Below, piece after piece: positions 1 to 39,472 of a stretch of DNA of 64,000 nt; within the stretch, counting starts at the first letter, position 1, and every line of letters starts with the position of its first letter. The notes under the pieces are model-generated. The model saw nothing but the letters and a program-made list of their open reading frames with translations. It made no database searches and was not told the DNA's origin. Location: NCBI RefSeq assembly GCF_045037415.1, contig NZ_CP173438.1. One strand, given 5' to 3'. A program made the position numbers and the translations under genes. This DNA comes from Escherichia coli. GTDB taxonomy: Bacteria; Pseudomonadota; Gammaproteobacteria; Enterobacterales; Enterobacteriaceae.

Positions 1-659
<659 letters not shown>

Positions 660-687
660 TTTACCAACACTACTACGTTTTAACTGA

Positions 688-962
<275 letters not shown>

Positions 963-1006
963 TAAAGAGCAATATCAGAACGTTAACTAAATAGAGGCAT
1001 TGTGCT

Positions 1007-1477
1007 GTGAATCTTAACGCAACAATCCTCGGCCAGGCCATCGCGTTTGTCCTGTTCGTTCTGTTCTGCATGAAGTACGTATGGCCGCCATTAATGGCAG
1101 CCATCGAAAAACGTCAAAAAGAAATTGCTGACGGCCTTGCTTCCGCAGAACGAGCACATAAGGACCTTGACCTTGCAAAGGCCAGCGCGACCGACCAGCT
1201 GAAAAAAGCGAAAGCGGAAGCCCAGGTAATCATCGAGCAGGCTAACAAACGCCGCTCGCAGATTCTGGATGAAGCGAAAGCTGAGGCAGAACAGGAACGT
1301 ACTAAAATCGTGGCCCAGGCGCAGGCGGAAATTGAAGCCGAGCGTAAACGTGCCCGTGAAGAGCTGCGTAAGCAAGTTGCTATCCTGGCTGTTGCTGGCG
1401 CCGAGAAGATCATCGAACGTTCCGTGGATGAAGCTGCTAACAGCGACATCGTGGATAAACTTGTCGCTGAACTGTAA
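1007..1477 (+). CDS. atpF: ATP synthase F0 subunit b (156 aa), GTG start
   Basis: 156-aa ORF with N-terminal TM helix then long charged coiled coil; GTG start as in E. coli atpF. Confidence 0.95.
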
Positions 1478-1491
1478 GGAGGGAGGGGCTG

Positions 1492-2025
1492 ATGTCTGAA
1501 TTTATTACGGTAGCTCGCCCCTACGCCAAAGCAGCTTTTGACTTTGCCGTCGAACACCAAAGTGTAGAACGCTGGCAGGACATGCTGGCGTTTGCCGCCG
1601 AGGTAACCAAAAACGAACAAATGGCAGAGCTTCTCTCTGGCGCGCTTGCGCCAGAAACGCTCGCCGAGTCGTTTATCGCAGTTTGTGGTGAGCAACTGGA
1701 CGAAAACGGTCAGAACCTGATTCGGGTAATGGCCGAAAATGGTCGTCTTAACGCGCTCCCGGATGTTCTGGAGCAGTTTATTCACCTGCGTGCTGTGAGT
1801 GAGGCTACCGCTGAGGTAGACGTCATTTCCGCTGCCGCGTTGAGTGAACAACAGCTCGCGAAAATTTCTGCTGCGATGGAAAAACGTCTGTCACGCAAAG
1901 TTAAGCTGAATTGCAAAATCGATAAGTCTGTAATGGCAGGTGTTATCATCCGAGCGGGTGATATGGTCATTGATGGCAGCGTACGCGGTCGTCTTGAGCG
2001 CCTTGCAGACGTCTTGCAGTCTTAA
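1492..2025 (+). CDS. atpH: ATP synthase F1 delta subunit (177 aa)
   Basis: 177-aa [22 protein letters not shown]…; operon position. Confidence 0.95.
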
Positions 2026-6394: not shown

Positions 6395-6695
6395 ACGCGT
6401 ATTGACCCGTCCTGAAAAGCGTTCACATAGATCCTGATGATATAAAACACCCCTGTTTTCCCGTTTATTCATTGATCGAAATAAGAGCAAAAACATCCAC
6501 CTGACGCTTAAATGAAGGTACTGCCTTAATTTTCTGCAGACAAAAGGCGTGACGATGGTCGAAAATGGCGCTTTCGTCAGCGGGGATAATCCGTTATTGA
6601 ACAATTTATCCTCTGTCCATTTCACGATGAAAAAAATGTAGTTTTTTCAAGGTGAAGCGGTTTAAATTCGTTCTCAAATTACAGTCAGGACGCGT

Positions 6696-30314: not shown

Positions 30315-31562
30315 TTAGCCAAATTTAGGTAACACGTTAAAGACGTTACCGAACCAGCATAAAATTACGGTTATGCCAAAGAGAATGACAATCGCCGGAA
30401 TAAGATTGCCGCCCCAGACCGTGAACATCTGATTGGGAAACTTCTTGCGGGCTTTGATTGCCAGTACAGCAGGAATTATTACCGCCCAGATGGTGGCGCA
30501 CAGTCCGGCACCGCCGATCCCGTAAATAAAGCCGTTCGGGAAGATCAGATACAACAACGCGGGTGGCAGGAAGGTTAACAGCACGGTTTTGAAACGCCCG
30601 GCGTGGGAGTTATCAATCTTAAACAGATCCGCCAGATAATCGAACAATCCCAGCGTGACACCAAAAAACGAGCTGGCAACAGCTAAGTTAGAGAACACCA
30701 GCAGGCAAAATTCGATAATGCCGTGCTGTTTGGTGCCGAGGAACGATTTCACCAGCGAATCAACGTTGCCGCCTGAGGAGATTATCGCCTTAAAGCTTTC
30801 TCGCGGGATATTCCCCATCGTGCAATAGAGCCAGAAGAGATAAATCACCAGCGCCAGCAGCGAACCGAAGACCACGCTTTTGATGAGCTTATCTTTGCGT
30901 TTGCCATAGCAAATAATCAGGCTGGGAATATTGCCGTGGAAACCAAATGACGCCAGACACACCGGCAAAGCCATAAAGATATACGGGAAGTAAGACGTCC
31001 CCGCAGTGGTGCTGGTGGAATCGCGCAGAATGGAGTAATCGACCTGGAAGAAGAAAGAACCAAAAACAATTACAAAGGAGATAATCTTCAGCCCAAGGAA
31101 CAATGAGGTAATACGACTGGCGGCTAATGAACTTATCCACAATACGCTGGCAACGAAAATGGCAGTGCAGATCCCGACAATACGTGGATTAGCGTGATAG
31201 CCCAAATTCATTGATATCGTTTCACTAATGATCGCACCATTAGCAGAGATATAGGCATAAGTGAGGATATAGAGAACGAAGGCAACGGTAATACCGCTGA
31301 TTATGTTCCAGGTGTTACCGATTAAATCTTTGGTGATGGTGTTAAAACTGGAACCGACGGGATAATTTAAGTTTGCTTCTAATAATAATAGCCCTGAATG
31401 TAACATTGAAAACCAGGCGATAATAAGAATAAAAGCGCCCCAAAAAAACCAGGCTCCGGCAAGGTCAACAGGTAAAGCAAACATCCCACCGCCAATTACT
31501 GTACCGGCTATAACCATAACACCCCAAAATGCAGAGTGTTTTTTTTCTGATTGATCAGTCAT
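30315..31562 (-). CDS. tnaB: Low-affinity tryptophan permease (415 aa)
   Basis: 415-aa aromatic amino acid permease family ORF downstream of tnaA. Confidence 0.93.
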   Translation of the reverse strand: MTDQSEKKHSAFWGVMVIAGTVIGGGMFALPVDLAGAWFFWGAFILIIAWFSMLHSGLLLLEANLNYPVGSSFNTITKDLIGNTWNIISGITVAFVLYILTYAYISANGAIISETISMNLGYHANPRIVGICTAIFVASVLWISSLAASRITSLFLGLKIISFVIVFGSFFFQVDYSILRDSTSTTAGTSYFPYIFMALPVCLASFGFHGNIPSLIICYGKRKDKLIKSVVFGSLLALVIYLFWLYCTMGNIPRESFKAIISSGGNVDSLVKSFLGTKQHGIIEFCLLVFSNLAVASSFFGVTLGLFDYLADLFKIDNSHAGRFKTVLLTFLPPALLYLIFPNGFIYGIGGAGLCATIWAVIIPAVLAIKARKKFPNQMFTVWGGNLIPAIVILFGITVILCWFGNVFNVLPKFG

Positions 31563-31653
31563 GATGCCACCTTTAGAGGAAGGCTATTTTTGTTATTGAG
31601 GATGTAGGGTAATAGAGTGGCTAACATCCTTATAGCCACTCTGAGTGTTTTAA

Positions 31654-33069
31654 TTAAACTTCTTTCAGTTTTGCGGTGAAGTGACGCAATACTTTCGGTT
31701 CGTAGGTAAAGGTTAACCCTTTAATATTCGCCGCGTTCTCTTTCACATGTTTAAAGGCTTCAATAATGAAGTCCATATGTGTTTGAGTATATGTTGCGCG
31801 CGGAATGGTTAAACGCAGCAGTTCAGCCGGGCATGGCAGTTGTTTACCGGTTTTCGGATCGCGGCCTAACAGGAAAGAGCCAATTTCTACCGCACGGATA
31901 CCGGCGACTTTATACAGCTCGCAGGCCAGCGCCTGTGCCGGGAACTGATCTGCCGGGATATGCGGCAACAGTTTACCTGCATCAACGAATGCCGCGTGAC
32001 CGCCCGCCTGCTGACAGACAACGCCAATCTCTTCCAGACCATCGACCAGATACTGCACCTGCGCGATACGATAAGCCAGCCAGTCCAGATTCATGCCGTC
32101 ATACAGACCTACCGCCAGACGCTCCATAGCGCCGCCTTCCAGGCCGCCATATGTCGGGAAGCCTTCCTGCACCACGCAAAGGGTTCTGCATTCGGTATAC
32201 ACATCAAAGAAGCTGTTGTCTTTCATGCACAGCAGGCCGCCCATCGGCACCATCGCATCTTTCTTGGCGGACATCGCCAGCATATCGGCATATTTGTAGG
32301 TTTCGCGGGTGATCTGCTCGATGGTCCAGTCTTTGTATTCTGCTTCACGCTGCTTGATGAAATAGGCGTTTTCGGCAAAGCGTGCGGAGTCCATGACCAC
32401 CGGAATATCGTATTTCTTCGCGATGCTGTACATCGCTTTTAAGTTTGCCAGTGAAACCGGCTGACCACCTGCGGAGTTACTGGTGATGGTTGCAACAATA
32501 TACGGCACGTTATTCGGGCCAACTTCTTCAATACCGCGTTCTAATCCCTCAAGGTCAAAGTTGCCTTTAAAGTCGTAACGCACGCCAGTATCGAAGGCTT
32601 CTTTGATATAGACGTTACGCACGGTACAGCCGTTAATCTGGCTATGGCCCTGCGTGGTATCAAAGAAATAGTTAGAGAACGCCACCATTTTGCTGCGATC
32701 CAGGCCTTTTTCCTGCTCGCGTTTTTTAATCAGTACCGGAATATAGATTTGCTCTGCACCACGGCCCTGGTGAGTCGGAATAGTGTATTGATAACCAAAG
32801 ATATTTTTCACTGACTCGGCTAACGCGTAGTAGCTGCGGCTGCCGCTGTAGGCTTCGTCGCCACGCATCATCGCGGCCTGCATACTCTGCGTCACCGCCC
32901 CGGTGCCGCTGTCGGTCAGTAAATCGATAAACACATCTTCGCTATCCAGCAGGAACGGGTTCATACCGGATTTAATAATTGCCTCTTCACGATAAGCGCG
33001 AGTGGTACGTTTTACTGGCTCAATAACACGAATGCGGAACGGTTCAGGGAGATGTTTAAAGTTTTCCAT
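31654..33069 (-). CDS. tnaA: Tryptophanase (471 aa)
   Basis: ORF 31654..33084; start at [15 protein letters not shown] gives 471 aa. Confidence 0.95.
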
Positions 33070-33289
33070 TACATAATCCTTCATTTATTTTAATTACAGT
33101 GATCCCTGTGAATATTACATTTGCAATATCCATTAATTCGCCAGATATATATGCAAGCACCATCATTTACTAAAACAAGTAAATAAACGAGAGATGGCCT
33201 TTGTAAAAGGCAAAATTAAGATATAGCAAACTAATCGATCACATTGAATCTAATCGGTTTGGCTCTGGTGATGGCTACAGAAGGGCAAA

Positions 33290-33364
33290 TCAAGGGCGGT
33301 GATCGACAATCTTGTTGTCAATATTAAACCATTTTGAGGTCACACATATATGTAAGATATTCAT
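33290..33364 (-). CDS. tnaC: tna operon leader peptide TnaC (24 aa)
   Basis: Minus-strand reading gives atgaatatcttacatatatgtgtgacctcaaaatggttcaatattgacaacaagattgtcgatcaccgcccttga = MNILHICVTSKWFNIDNKIVDHRP*. Confidence 0.9.
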   Translation of the reverse strand: MNILHICVTSKWFNIDNKIVDHRP

Positions 33365-33439
33365 AATGCACTTATCCTCGAAAGACACGAGGCTACAGTA
33401 TAATACTCAAGAAATTTGTCTATTCTGAAATTGTTTAAA

Positions 33440-33455
33440 TGTGAATCGAATCACA
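33440..33455. promoter_or_regulatory. CRP (CAP) binding site of the tna promoter
   Basis: tgtgaatcgaatcaca, a near-perfect TGTGA-N6-TCACA palindrome upstream of tnaC. Confidence 0.7.
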
Positions 33456-33561
33456 ATCGTTCGGGACGCAATATTAAATATCTATTTTAAAGATTATAAA
33501 TTACGTAAGAATTTTAATGTTTAAAAAAGGGTTGAGGAATAACAGGAGTGCTAACAATGAA

Positions 33562-33596
33562 GCGAAGCCGCATCTGACAGTCAGAATGCGGCTTCG
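33562..33596 (-). terminator. Putative terminator downstream of mnmE
   Basis: gcgaagccgcat…atgcggcttcgc hairpin immediately 3' of the mnmE stop. Confidence 0.55.
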
Positions 33597-33605
33597 CAAG
33601 CGCGG

Positions 33606-34970
33606 TTACTTACCGATACAGAAGCTGGAGAAAATCCGCCCCAGTAGGTCGTCTGAAGTAAACTCCCCGGTGATCTCGCTTAAGTTCTGCTGCGCCAGGC
33701 GCAACTCTTCCGCCAGCAGTTCACCCGCCCAGGCACCTAACAGTTGCGCTTTACCTTGCTGCAAATGCTCTGCCGCCTGTTCCAGCGCCTGTAGGTGACG
33801 ACGACGCGCCAGGAAGCCGCCTTCCATATTAGTGTCAAAGCCCATGCTCTGTTTGAGATGGTTACGCAGCACATCCACGCCTTCGCCAGTCCGCGCCGAA
33901 AGACGAATTAACGCGTGACCGTTCACTTCGCTCATCCCCAACGTTTCGCCGGTGATATCGGCTTTATTGCGCACCACGGTGATCGGCAGTTTCGCTGGCA
34001 GACGGGCGATAAATTCCGGCCAGATCTCTGCCGGATCAACGGCGTCTGTCGTGGTGCCATCGACCATAAACAGCACGCGGTCTGCCTGTTCAATTTCCTG
34101 CCATGCGCGCTCGATACCAATACGTTCAACTTCGTCACTGGCTTCACGTAGCCCGGCGGTATCGATGATATGCAACGGCATTCCGTCAATGTGGATATGC
34201 TCACGCAGCACGTCACGCGTGGTTCCGGCGATATCGGTTACGATTGCTGCTTCACGGCCCGCCAGCGCGTTCAGCAGGCTCGATTTACCGGCGTTAGGAC
34301 GTCCGGCAATCACCACTTTCATCCCTTCGCGCAACAAACTACCCTGACGAGCTTCGGCGCGTACCGCGTCGAGATCGGCAATTACGTCATTGAGCTGGGC
34401 TTCAATTTTGCCGTCGGAGAGGAAATCGATCTCTTCATCCGGGAAATCAATTGCCGCTTCGACGTAAATGCGCAAGTGGGTGAGGGCTTCCACCAGATGG
34501 TTGACCCGTGCGGAGAACGCGCCTTGCAGCGAGTTTAGCGCCGAACGGGCCGCCTGTTCCGAGCTGGCGTCGATAAGATCCGCAATCGCCTCGGCCTGGG
34601 CTAAGTCGAGTTTATCGTTCAGAAATGCGCGTTCGGAAAACTCACCAGGGCGGGCAATCCGCAGGCCGGGAATGGTCAGAATGCGTTTTAACAGCAGGTC
34701 GAGGATCACCGGACCGCCATGACCTTGCAGTTCCAGCACATCTTCGCCGGTGAACGAGTTCGGGCCAGGGAACCATAGCGCAATCCCCTGATCGAGCACG
34801 CTGCCATCGGCGTCTTTAAACGGAAGATAATCGGCGTAGCGTGGCTTAGGCAGTTTACCCAGCACGGTTTCGGCAACTTCACGGGCTTTGAGGCCGGAGA
34901 TGCGCAGGATGCCAACGCCGCCACGTCCCGGAGGCGTGGCCTGGGCTACGATAGTGTCATTATCGCTCAT
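33606..34970 (-). CDS. mnmE: tRNA modification GTPase MnmE (454 aa)
   Basis: 454-aa ORF with G-domain motifs [12 protein letters not shown] and DTAG, C-terminal CIGK. Confidence 0.95.
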
Positions 34971-35021
34971 GATGTTCCTGTTGCTTTGTGTGGCGGATGT
35001 GTGGTGCTTATCCGCCCTACG

Positions 35022-35052
35022 AAAAGAAAAAAGGCGGTCAACTGACCGCCCT
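35022..35052 (-). terminator. Rho-independent terminator after yidC
   Basis: ggcggtc-aact-gaccgcc hairpin with a flanking A/T run. Confidence 0.6.
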
Positions 35053-35075
35053 TATTTTAGCGAAAACTCACCGAA

Positions 35076-36722
35076 TCAGGATTTTTTCTTCTCGCGGCTA
35101 TGCAAGCCACGTTTTTCCAGACCACGGTAAATCAGCTGCTGCTGAATAATGGTTACCAGGTTGCTGACGATATAGTACAGCACCAGACCTGACGGGAACC
35201 ACAGGAAGAACACAGTGAAGATGACCGGCATAAAGGTCATGATCTTCTGCTGCATCGGGTCGGTCACAGTGGTCGGCGACATCTTCTGAATGAAGAACAT
35301 CGTTACGCCCATCAGGATCGGCAGGATGTAGTACGGGTCCTGTGCAGACAGGTCGTGGATCCACAGTGCAAACGGTGCCTGACGTAGTTCAACGGAACCC
35401 ATCAGCATGTAGTACAACGCCAGGAAGATTGGCATCTGGATCAGCAGCGGGAAGCAGCCGCCCAGCGGGTTAACCTTCTCAGCTTTGTACAGCGCCATCA
35501 TTTCCTGGCTTATGCGCTGTTTGTCATCGCCCAGACGCTCACGCATTGCCTGAATCTTCGGCTGCAGCATACGCATCTTCGCCATGGAGGTGTACTGCGC
35601 TTTGGTCAGCGGGTACATGATGCCACGAACGATAAAGGTGATGATGATAATGGAGAAGCCCCAGTTACCCACAAAGCTATGGATCCATTTCAGCAGTTTG
35701 AACAGTGGCTGAGAGATGAACCACAACCAACCGTAATCAACGGTCAGATCCAGGTGCGGAGCAACAGCTGCCATTTTGTCCTGAATTTCCGGGCCAACCC
35801 ACAGGGTGCTGTTCATCGCGCCAGTCTGACCAGGCTGAACCAGTACCGGCTGAGATTTATAGCCGATAGCGGCGATGCCGTTACCCAGATTAGCGGTGTA
35901 GAAGTTGTTGGTACCGTCGTTATGCGGGATCCACGCCGTCGCGAAATACTGTTGCAGCATTGCCACCCAACCACCTTTCGAAGAGATGTTCAGGTTTTCG
36001 TTATCGGCAATGGTATCGAATTTGTATTTCTCGTACTTCTCGTCAGGCGTGGAGTACGCCGCACCACGGAAGGTGTGCAGTGCGAAGTTGCTGCTTCCGG
36101 TATCGAGATGCGGTGGCAGAGTGATGGATTGCTTCAACTGACCAAAGGTGGAGATTTCCAGCGGTTTCTCGCCAGCGTTCTGCACGTTGTAGTTGACGTT
36201 GACAGCGTAATCACCACGTTTCAGGACAAACGTTTTGGTAAACGTGTTGCCTGCCGCGTCGGTATACGTCATCGGCACCTGCAGTTCGTTTTGACCTTCA
36301 GCCAGCACATAAGCGTCTTTTTCAACGTTATATAGCGGACGCGGGCCGTTAGCCGGGTTATCCGGGCCATCACGACCGGTCAGACCGCTCTGTGCCTGAT
36401 AAATAAACTGCGGTGAAGTTTCCAGCAGCTGGAACGGCTGGGTAGAGTTCAGCTCTTTCGGGTAAGCCGGCAGCAGGGCCTGCTCAACATCACCACCACG
36501 GGTGTTGATGGTCAGATCAAGCACGTCGGTCTTAACCGAGATCAGTTTCCCCTGGCCACTGGCCGGTACGCCCTGGTCGGCGGCGCTACCCGCTGCGGTG
36601 GTCGTTGTCTGCGTGGTCTGTTGGGCCTGAGGTTGCGGGTTTTTATCCTGCTCCCAGGCTTGCCAGATCATGAAAGACACGAACAGCAAAGCGATGACTA
36701 AAAGATTGCGTTGCGAATCCAT
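35076..36722 (-). CDS. yidC: Membrane protein insertase YidC (548 aa)
   Basis: 548-aa [29 protein letters not shown]…. Confidence 0.95.
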
Positions 36723-38068: not shown

Positions 38069-39472
38069 GTGTCACTTTCGCTTTGGCAGCAGTGTCTTGC
38101 CCGATTGCAGGATGAGTTACCAGCCACAGAATTCAGTATGTGGATACGCCCATTGCAGGCGGAACTGAGCGATAACACGCTGGCCCTGTACGCGCCAAAC
38201 CGTTTTGTCCTCGATTGGGTACGGGACAAGTACCTTAATAATATCAATGGACTGCTAACCAGTTTCTGCGGAGCGGATGCCCCACAGCTGCGTTTTGAAG
38301 TCGGCACCAAACCGGTGACGCAAACGCCACAAGCGGCAGTGACGAGCAACGTCGCGGCCCCTGCACAGGTGGCGCAAACGCAGCCGCAACGTGCTGCGCC
38401 TTCTACGCGCTCGGGTTGGGATAACGTCCCGGCTCCGGCAGAACCGACCTATCGTTCTAACGTAAACGTCAAACACACGTTTGATAACTTCGTTGAAGGT
38501 AAATCTAACCAACTGGCGCGCGCGGCGGCTCGCCAGGTGGCAGATAACCCTGGCGGTGCTTATAACCCGTTGTTCCTTTATGGCGGCACGGGTTTGGGTA
38601 AAACTCACCTGCTGCATGCGGTGGGTAACGGCATTATGGCGCGCAAGCCGAATGCCAAAGTGGTTTATATGCACTCCGAGCGCTTTGTTCAGGACATGGT
38701 TAAAGCCCTGCAAAACAACGCGATCGAAGAGTTTAAACGCTACTACCGTTCCGTAGATGCACTGCTGATCGACGATATTCAGTTTTTTGCTAATAAAGAA
38801 CGATCTCAGGAAGAGTTTTTCCACACCTTCAACGCCCTGCTGGAAGGTAATCAACAGATCATTCTCACCTCCGATCGCTATCCGAAAGAGATCAACGGCG
38901 TTGAGGATCGTTTGAAATCCCGCTTCGGCTGGGGACTGACTGTGGCGATCGAACCGCCAGAGCTGGAAACCCGCGTGGCGATCCTGATGAAAAAGGCCGA
39001 CGAAAACGACATTCGTTTGCCGGGCGAAGTGGCGTTCTTTATCGCCAAGCGTCTACGATCTAACGTACGTGAGTTGGAAGGCGCGCTGAACCGCGTCATT
39101 GCCAACGCCAACTTTACCGGACGGGCGATCACCATCGACTTCGTGCGTGAGGCGCTGCGCGACTTGCTGGCATTGCAGGAAAAACTGGTCACCATCGACA
39201 ATATTCAGAAGACGGTGGCGGAGTACTACAAGATCAAAGTCGCGGATCTCCTTTCCAAGCGTCGATCCCGCTCGGTGGCCCGTCCGCGCCAGATGGCGAT
39301 GGCGCTGGCGAAAGAGCTGACTAACCACAGTCTGCCGGAGATTGGCGATGCCTTTGGTGGTCGTGACCACACGACGGTGCTTCATGCCTGCCGGAAGATC
39401 GAGCAGTTGCGTGAAGAGAGCCACGATATCAAAGAAGATTTTTCTAATTTAATCAGAACATTGTCATCGTAA
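38069..39472 (+). CDS. dnaA: Chromosomal replication initiator DnaA (467 aa), GTG start
   Basis: ORF 38057..39472; GTG at 38069 gives (M)[16 protein letters not shown]…; Walker [11 protein letters not shown]. Confidence 0.96.

Follow-up and report, generated by a model that had tools for sequence, protein, structure and literature searches.

An intact tnaCAB regulatory leader in a natural non-K-12 allele of Escherichia coli

The 64-kb window, by which we mean the whole stretch of DNA analysed, is E. coli chromosome, and the feature described here is the tna leader. We put at about 0.97 the probability that this region controls the tnaCAB (tryptophanase) operon as its regulatory leader, in two stages, and that it is a natural allele distinct from that of K-12. 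The sequence elements are all present, their order and spacing are right, and wherever it counts they do not differ from the characterised elements of K-12. Ribosome stalling, Rho dependence, and CRP activation are carried over from published K-12 experiments and would operate here by analogy. An earlier note on this DNA had proposed a tna leader region with tnaC and a CRP site; all the elements that it named match the characterised E. coli tna leader, spacer length aside, and nothing found argues against this reading.

Small-molecule sensing by a nascent peptide and Rho-dependent attenuation have a classic model in the tna leader, which governs the production of indole, a signalling molecule. 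It is already known and annotated in RefSeq, and an intact copy in E. coli adds nothing new. The sole aspect of the region that is not textbook knowledge is a split of its core promoter into two classes.

Overall organization of the operon

The genes tnaC, tnaA, and tnaB, with the spacer between the first two, are arranged in order on one strand, with mnmE upstream (Table 1). The gene order rnpA-yidD-yidC-mnmE-tnaC-tnaA-tnaB-mdtL is common to K-12 and to a genome identical to the window. To measure conservation, positions 33000..33620 (621 nt) were used as a megablast query against 5426 complete E. coli genomes. It has matches in 5419 of these, all of them chromosomal, with 100% identity to some genomes (e.g. 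NZ_CP124326.1) and 95.5% identity to K-12 MG1655. The RefSeq features under the 100% matches are mnmE, 'tnaC: tryptophanase leader peptide', and tnaA. In a separate megablast comparison, a 241-nt segment carrying the tnaC leader is found in 5403 of the 5426 genomes.

The tnaC ORF and the CRP motif could in principle be a relic in an indole-negative lineage that has lost a working tna operon. In favour of this, the surroundings of the leader are disrupted or altered in some E. coli (by IS1 in NZ_OX030701.1) and 23 of the 5426 genomes give no leader match. However, tnaA and tnaB of the window are intact, full-length genes (471 and 415 aa) that score far above the equivalog cut-offs, no insertion interrupts 33069..33606, and the region is 100% identical to many sequenced isolates. 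We therefore consider a relic extremely unlikely, and read the region as the leader of an intact operon.

Table 1 Features of the tna leader and operon in the window
Feature	Position	Strand	Description or basis
CRP binding site core TGTGATTCGATTCACA (operon coding strand)	33455..33440	minus	Perfect TGTGA-N6-TCACA
Core promoter region	33395..33429	minus	Candidate TTCAGA 33429..33424, 18-nt spacer, TATTAT 33405..33400
Shine-Dalgarno-like GAGGA, 10 nt 5' of tnaC ATG	33375..33379	minus	Read from sequence
tnaC, 24 codons plus TGA stop	33364..33290	minus	MNILHICVTSKWFNIDNKIVDHRP by translation
tnaC key codons (first part)	ATG 33364; Trp12 tgg 33331..33329; Asp16 gac 33319..33317	minus	Read from sequence
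tnaC key codons (second part)	Ile19 att 33310..33308; Pro24 cct 33295..33293; TGA 33292..33290	minus	Read from sequence
boxA-like CGCCCTTGA (Arg23 and Pro24 codons and UGA stop)	33298..33290	minus	Closest match to the boxA consensus CGCTCTTTA within the leader, 7/9
C-rich, G-poor stretch right after the stop; rut (Rho utilisation) region	33246..33289	minus	Base composition and K-12 identity
tnaC-tnaA transcribed spacer, 220 nt	33289..33070	minus	Length computed; pausing, Rho termination, and L4 binding from literature
Site complementary to the 15-nt Spot 42 tract (GAGCCAAACCGAUUAG)	33265..33250	minus	Predicted duplex with UAAUCGGAUUUGGCU
tnaA Shine-Dalgarno AGGA, 7 nt before ATG 33069	33077..33080	minus	Read from sequence; invariant in alignment
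tnaA, tryptophanase, 471 aa	33069..31654	minus	NCBIfam TIGR02617, 1008.8 bits (cut-off 825.8)
tnaB, low-affinity tryptophan permease, 415 aa	31562..30315	minus	NCBIfam NF007235, 925 bits (cut-off 497)

The leader peptide TnaC

On the minus strand, positions 33364..33293 translate to MNILHICVTSKWFNIDNKIVDHRP and are followed by the TGA stop at 33292..33290; translation of 33287-33364 accordingly reads MNILHICVTSKWFNIDNKIVDHRP*F. The claim that this strand encodes TnaC exactly at 33364..33290 is thus confirmed, and the coordinates are exact with the stop included. The peptide scores 44.3 bits (E = 1.1e-11) against the profile HMM TIGR02616 (tnaC_leader) of NCBIfam, whose curated cut-off is 23.55, and its residues 3-24 cover all 22 positions of the profile. 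It agrees in 24 of 24 residues with chain 7 of PDB 6i0y, 'tryptophanase operon leader peptide', and is identical to K-12 TnaC (RefSeq WP_001364348.1), the accession that tnaC carries in K-12, AVS0285, and O157:H7 alike.

Residues Trp12, Asp16, Ile19, and Pro24 of TnaC play essential roles (PMC10941005, PMC3902921), and mutation of W12, D16, I19, or P24 abolishes induction (PMC10941005). All four are present in the window and occupy the expected codons. Pro24 is the last sense codon with UGA next to it, and the Trp12 and Pro24-stop arrangement is as the earlier note had described. Published biochemical and cryo-EM work used the same peptide as the one encoded here (PMC8429421). From this identity (PDB 6i0y; PMC8429421), we infer that release of TnaC-tRNAPro by RF2 would be blocked here, too, in a tryptophan-dependent manner.

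Alignment with K-12 tnaC shows two nucleotide differences only, both synonymous, at 33326 (Phe13, TTT/TTC) and 33311 (Lys18, AAG/AAA). Hence Trp12, Asp16, and Pro24 are unchanged, and the 220-nt spacer is present downstream. The GAGGA motif ahead of the gene is likewise the same in K-12 and O157:H7 in the alignment.

The mechanical ORF list gives the tnaC frame as 33290..33388, a 32-aa ORF from an in-frame GTG further 5'. The form annotated in RefSeq is the 24-codon ATG form, not the 32-aa GTG form. The earlier note picked out a 24-codon gene that mechanical ORF lists give in another form or drop by length.

The tnaC-tnaA spacer and the rut region

The spacer was previously put at about 205 bp. 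Its actual length is 220 nt (33289..33070), and the smaller figure arose because it was counted to an in-frame ATG at 33084 that heads a mechanical 476-aa ORF. In RefSeq, tnaA is 1416 nt (471 aa) in K-12 and in the genomes identical to the window, which places the tnaA start at 33069. In addition, ATG 33084 overlaps the tnaA ribosome-binding site, and AGGA stands 7 nt 5' of ATG 33069. A 220-nt spacer, with pause sites and a binding region for ribosomal protein L4, is also what K-12 work describes (PMC7186457).

Two further ATG codons accompany the tnaA start, both conserved in K-12. ATG 33084 is in frame with tnaA and yields the spurious 476-aa ORF; the other opens a frame of two codons, ATG-TAA (33074..33069), that shares one base with the true tnaA ATG.

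A search of the leader for boxA-like and rut sequences finds a boxA-like element, matching at 7 of 9 positions, at the stop codon itself, and a C-rich, G-poor stretch adjacent to it. The boxA-like CGCCCTTGA is identical in K-12. Konan and Yanofsky reportedly described, in 2000, a role for the boxA-like sequence in the tna leader and the Rho dependence of termination. The strongest excess of C over G in the leader begins at the boxA-like site. Positions 33306..33267 contain 16 C and 6 G, which places them among the highest 1.2% when every 40-nt window of the 64 kb is ranked over both strands, and positions 33305..33246 contain 21 C and 10 G (top 2.2% of 60-nt windows, likewise on both strands). 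Taken alone, this excess is modest. In predicted folds, the spacer shows hardly any pairing over its first ~30 nt, and the whole segment from the Ile19 codon through the boxA-like site to the C-rich stretch (33310..33237) agrees with K-12 at every base.

A short leader ORF with a Trp codon 5' of a tryptophan-related operon also calls to mind an attenuator of the trp-operon style, in which translation of the leader picks between RNA hairpins and an intrinsic terminator. However, tnaC has a single Trp codon rather than a tandem, and a pattern scan of the operon strand across the spacer (33070..33289) finds no hairpin with a T run of the kind seen in intrinsic terminators. No Rfam family matches 33070..33400 at E<=1 or at gathering level; over 31000..36000 the sole match at E<=1 is a chance-level suhB/mmgR hit inside yidC. 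The fold of the spacer has a z-score of -1.5, which is unremarkable, and we claim no special structure for it. The lack of an intrinsic terminator and of an Rfam match, together with the ordinary fold, is in keeping with an attenuator that relies on a peptide and Rho rather than on RNA structure. In accordance, the literature assigns Rho-dependent termination to the tna spacer (secondary accounts in PMC12360218, PMC10941005, and PMC7186457). The chance that the trp-style scheme applies here is close to nil.

The earlier note regarded the spacer as the Rho-dependent termination region. The spacer is present and has no intrinsic terminator, but the part that would bind Rho is its first ~60 nt, adjacent to the stop codon, and not its whole length.

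The CRP site and the core promoter

Initiation of tna transcription requires CRP, the catabolite activator protein (PMC3902921, PMC5748587). The near-perfect CRP palindrome reported upstream of tnaC is there: the core pentamers at 33455..33440 are both perfect, and the pattern TGTGA-N6-TCACA occurs only once in the 64 kb, compared with a mean of 0.05 in shuffled sequences (present in 5 of 100 shuffles). Read on the plus strand, 33440..33455 is tgtgaatcgaatcaca. The site is a near palindrome and not a perfect one, as its six central bases, ATCGAA, lack full symmetry. The core is invariant in the alignment of the window with K-12 and O157:H7.

Downstream of the CRP site, the candidate promoter scores 9/12 in a pattern scan, a score reached no more frequently in the region than in shuffles, and the assignment of the hexamers TTCAGA and TATTAT is weak. 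Transcription is expected to start at about 33388-33394, as predicted from two lines of reasoning. The K-12 tna leader is, as we take it from the literature of the Yanofsky laboratory, 319 nt long; as 24 + 75 + 220 = 319, the start would fall at 33388. The centre of the CRP site (33447.5) would then lie at about -59.5, a value that depends on this leader length. If TATTAT is the -10 element, the start would fall at 33392-33394 and the centre at about -54 to -56. Class I CRP sites are centred at about -61.5 from the transcription start. A literature search on TorR binding upstream of tnaC gave nothing usable, and such binding is not claimed here.

Several variations are seen on the upstream side of the leader. 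In NZ_OX030701.1 ('isolate 131', 369..1066), an IS1 lies between mnmE and tnaC; its annotated transposase CDS stops 167 nt short of the tnaC ATG, on the upstream side of the CRP site, and apart from the insertion this genome matches the window at 100% identity. O157:H7 and about 790 other genomes lose their homology to the window just 1-2 bp upstream of the core of the CRP site. In O157:H7 TR01 (1350..1520, corresponding to window position ~33456 and upstream), the upstream gene encodes a type III effector of the ShET2/EspL2 family and is not mnmE, indicating an island junction at the edge of the CRP site, with the site left intact. The 23 genomes (of 5426) with no megablast match to the 241-nt leader segment may be tna-deleted, indole-negative strains.

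Spot 42 and ribosomal protein L4

The small RNA Spot 42 is reported to pair with the stretch between tnaC and tnaA and to repress through it (PMC5748587), and L4 is likewise reported to bind the spacer and to lower TnaA translation (PMC7186457). In the window, the predicted Spot 42 site is intact and falls in the rut-proximal part of the spacer. Its duplex with UAAUCGGAUUUGGCU has a predicted energy of -18.6 kcal/mol and comprises 14 pairs with a single bulge. The sequence taken for Spot 42 was confirmed in 5424 E. coli genomes. A duplex between full-length Spot 42 and the leader is uninformative, as 38 of 300 shuffles are as good, and only pairing by the 15-nt tract is considered here.

An intact site at 33265..33250 and the published repression by both factors through the intergenic region raise the question of whether Spot 42 and L4, acting on the spacer, dominate control in the window allele in place of TnaC- and Rho-dependent attenuation. 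However, both reports treat the two factors as additional fine-tuning on top of attenuation (PMC5748587, PMC7186457). In addition, the attenuation elements are all intact in the window, and the effect of overproduced Spot 42 is about 4-fold (PMC5748587), compared with about 60-fold induction through TnaC (PMC3902921). Dominance of the post-transcriptional layers is thus highly unlikely; Spot 42 and L4 are fine-tuning layers and no rival to attenuation.

Proposed mechanism

On the reading that we prefer, TnaC- and Rho-dependent attenuation under a CRP-activated promoter, the leader would act in two stages. At the first stage, cAMP-CRP bound at 33455..33440 would activate a weak sigma-70 promoter, which would place the operon under catabolite repression. 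The transcript would open with a short 5' UTR followed by the 24-codon tnaC.

At the second stage, the outcome would depend on free L-tryptophan. When it is low, RF2 would release TnaC at the UGA codon and the ribosome would depart, uncovering the boxA-like sequence together with the C-rich rut region, which begins at the stop codon. Rho would load on the exposed rut and terminate RNA polymerase while it pauses in the 220-nt spacer and has yet to reach tnaA. When L-tryptophan is high, it would be bound in the exit tunnel together with folded nascent TnaC, with Trp12, Asp16, and Ile19 serving as the sensor and Arg23 and Pro24 as the stalling part. The GGQ loop of RF2 would then be unable to accommodate, so that TnaC-tRNAPro would stay unhydrolysed in the P site. 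The stalled ribosome would cover rut and block Rho, and transcription would proceed into tnaA and tnaB. The stalling and attenuation mechanism is described in PMC8429421, PMC10941005, PMC12360218, and PMC3902921.

Two related systems can be compared with this scheme. The tna leader of Proteus vulgaris works on the same principle, and the Trp, Asp, and Pro residues are conserved at the same relative spacing (PMC3902921). Its TnaC, likened here by published description, is longer (W20, D24, P32) than the 24-residue E. coli form of the window (PMC3902921). The ornithine-sensing speFL, upstream of speF, is also a uORF at which metabolite-dependent arrest masks a Rho loading site (PMC12360218, PMC8429421). 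SpeFL differs from TnaC in its ligand, its peptide, and its use of RF1 (PMC8429421), and the two sequences are unrelated.

Comparison with K-12 and two promoter classes

The window shares with the K-12 tnaCAB leader the same TnaC and UGA stop, the 220-nt spacer, the CRP core, the Shine-Dalgarno sequences, and the flanking genes. Over the 621 nt compared, there are 29 differences (95.5% identity). Besides the two in tnaC, there are ten upstream of the CRP site, a cluster of eight within 17 bp of the core promoter (33414..33398), a single one in the 5' UTR (33381), four in the middle of the spacer (33236, 33232, 33204, and 33197), and four in its distal part (33131, 33129, 33125, and 33121). The eight spacer substitutions could displace pause sites or alter tnaA translation.

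The promoter cluster of the window is also found in O157:H7. With a 76-nt query across the cluster, about 3997 complete E. coli genomes carry the window type and about 1615 the K-12 type, indicating that the K-12 promoter is the minority type; the 76-nt promoter sequence of the window is present at an identity of at least 99% in 812 genomes. Judged by these sequence matches, the K-12 core promoter is the minority allele and the window carries the common one, which matters when K-12 tna promoter data or tnaC-based biosensors are extended to other strains. It is conceivable, although we think it rather unlikely, that lineages of the two promoter classes differ heritably in basal or CRP-dependent transcription of tna and, with it, in how much indole they make. 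If so, the reference promoter of K-12 would be unrepresentative of most E. coli.

Other elements in the surrounding sequence

Just after the mnmE stop, positions 33562..33597 hold a perfect 12-bp inverted repeat, GCGAAGCCGCAT / ATGCGGCTTCGC, with 12 nt between the arms and no T run. It is probably a hairpin at the 3' end of mnmE. Compared with K-12, the G at 33597 lengthens the stem by one pair.

Elsewhere in the 64-kb window, three Rfam families match at gathering level: the sRNA STnc410 (6455..6612, minus strand, 188 bits), AsdA, an antisense RNA of dnaA (38579..38659, minus strand, 99.7 bits), and the RNA thermometer ROSE_2 (54214..54286, plus strand, 96.6 bits).
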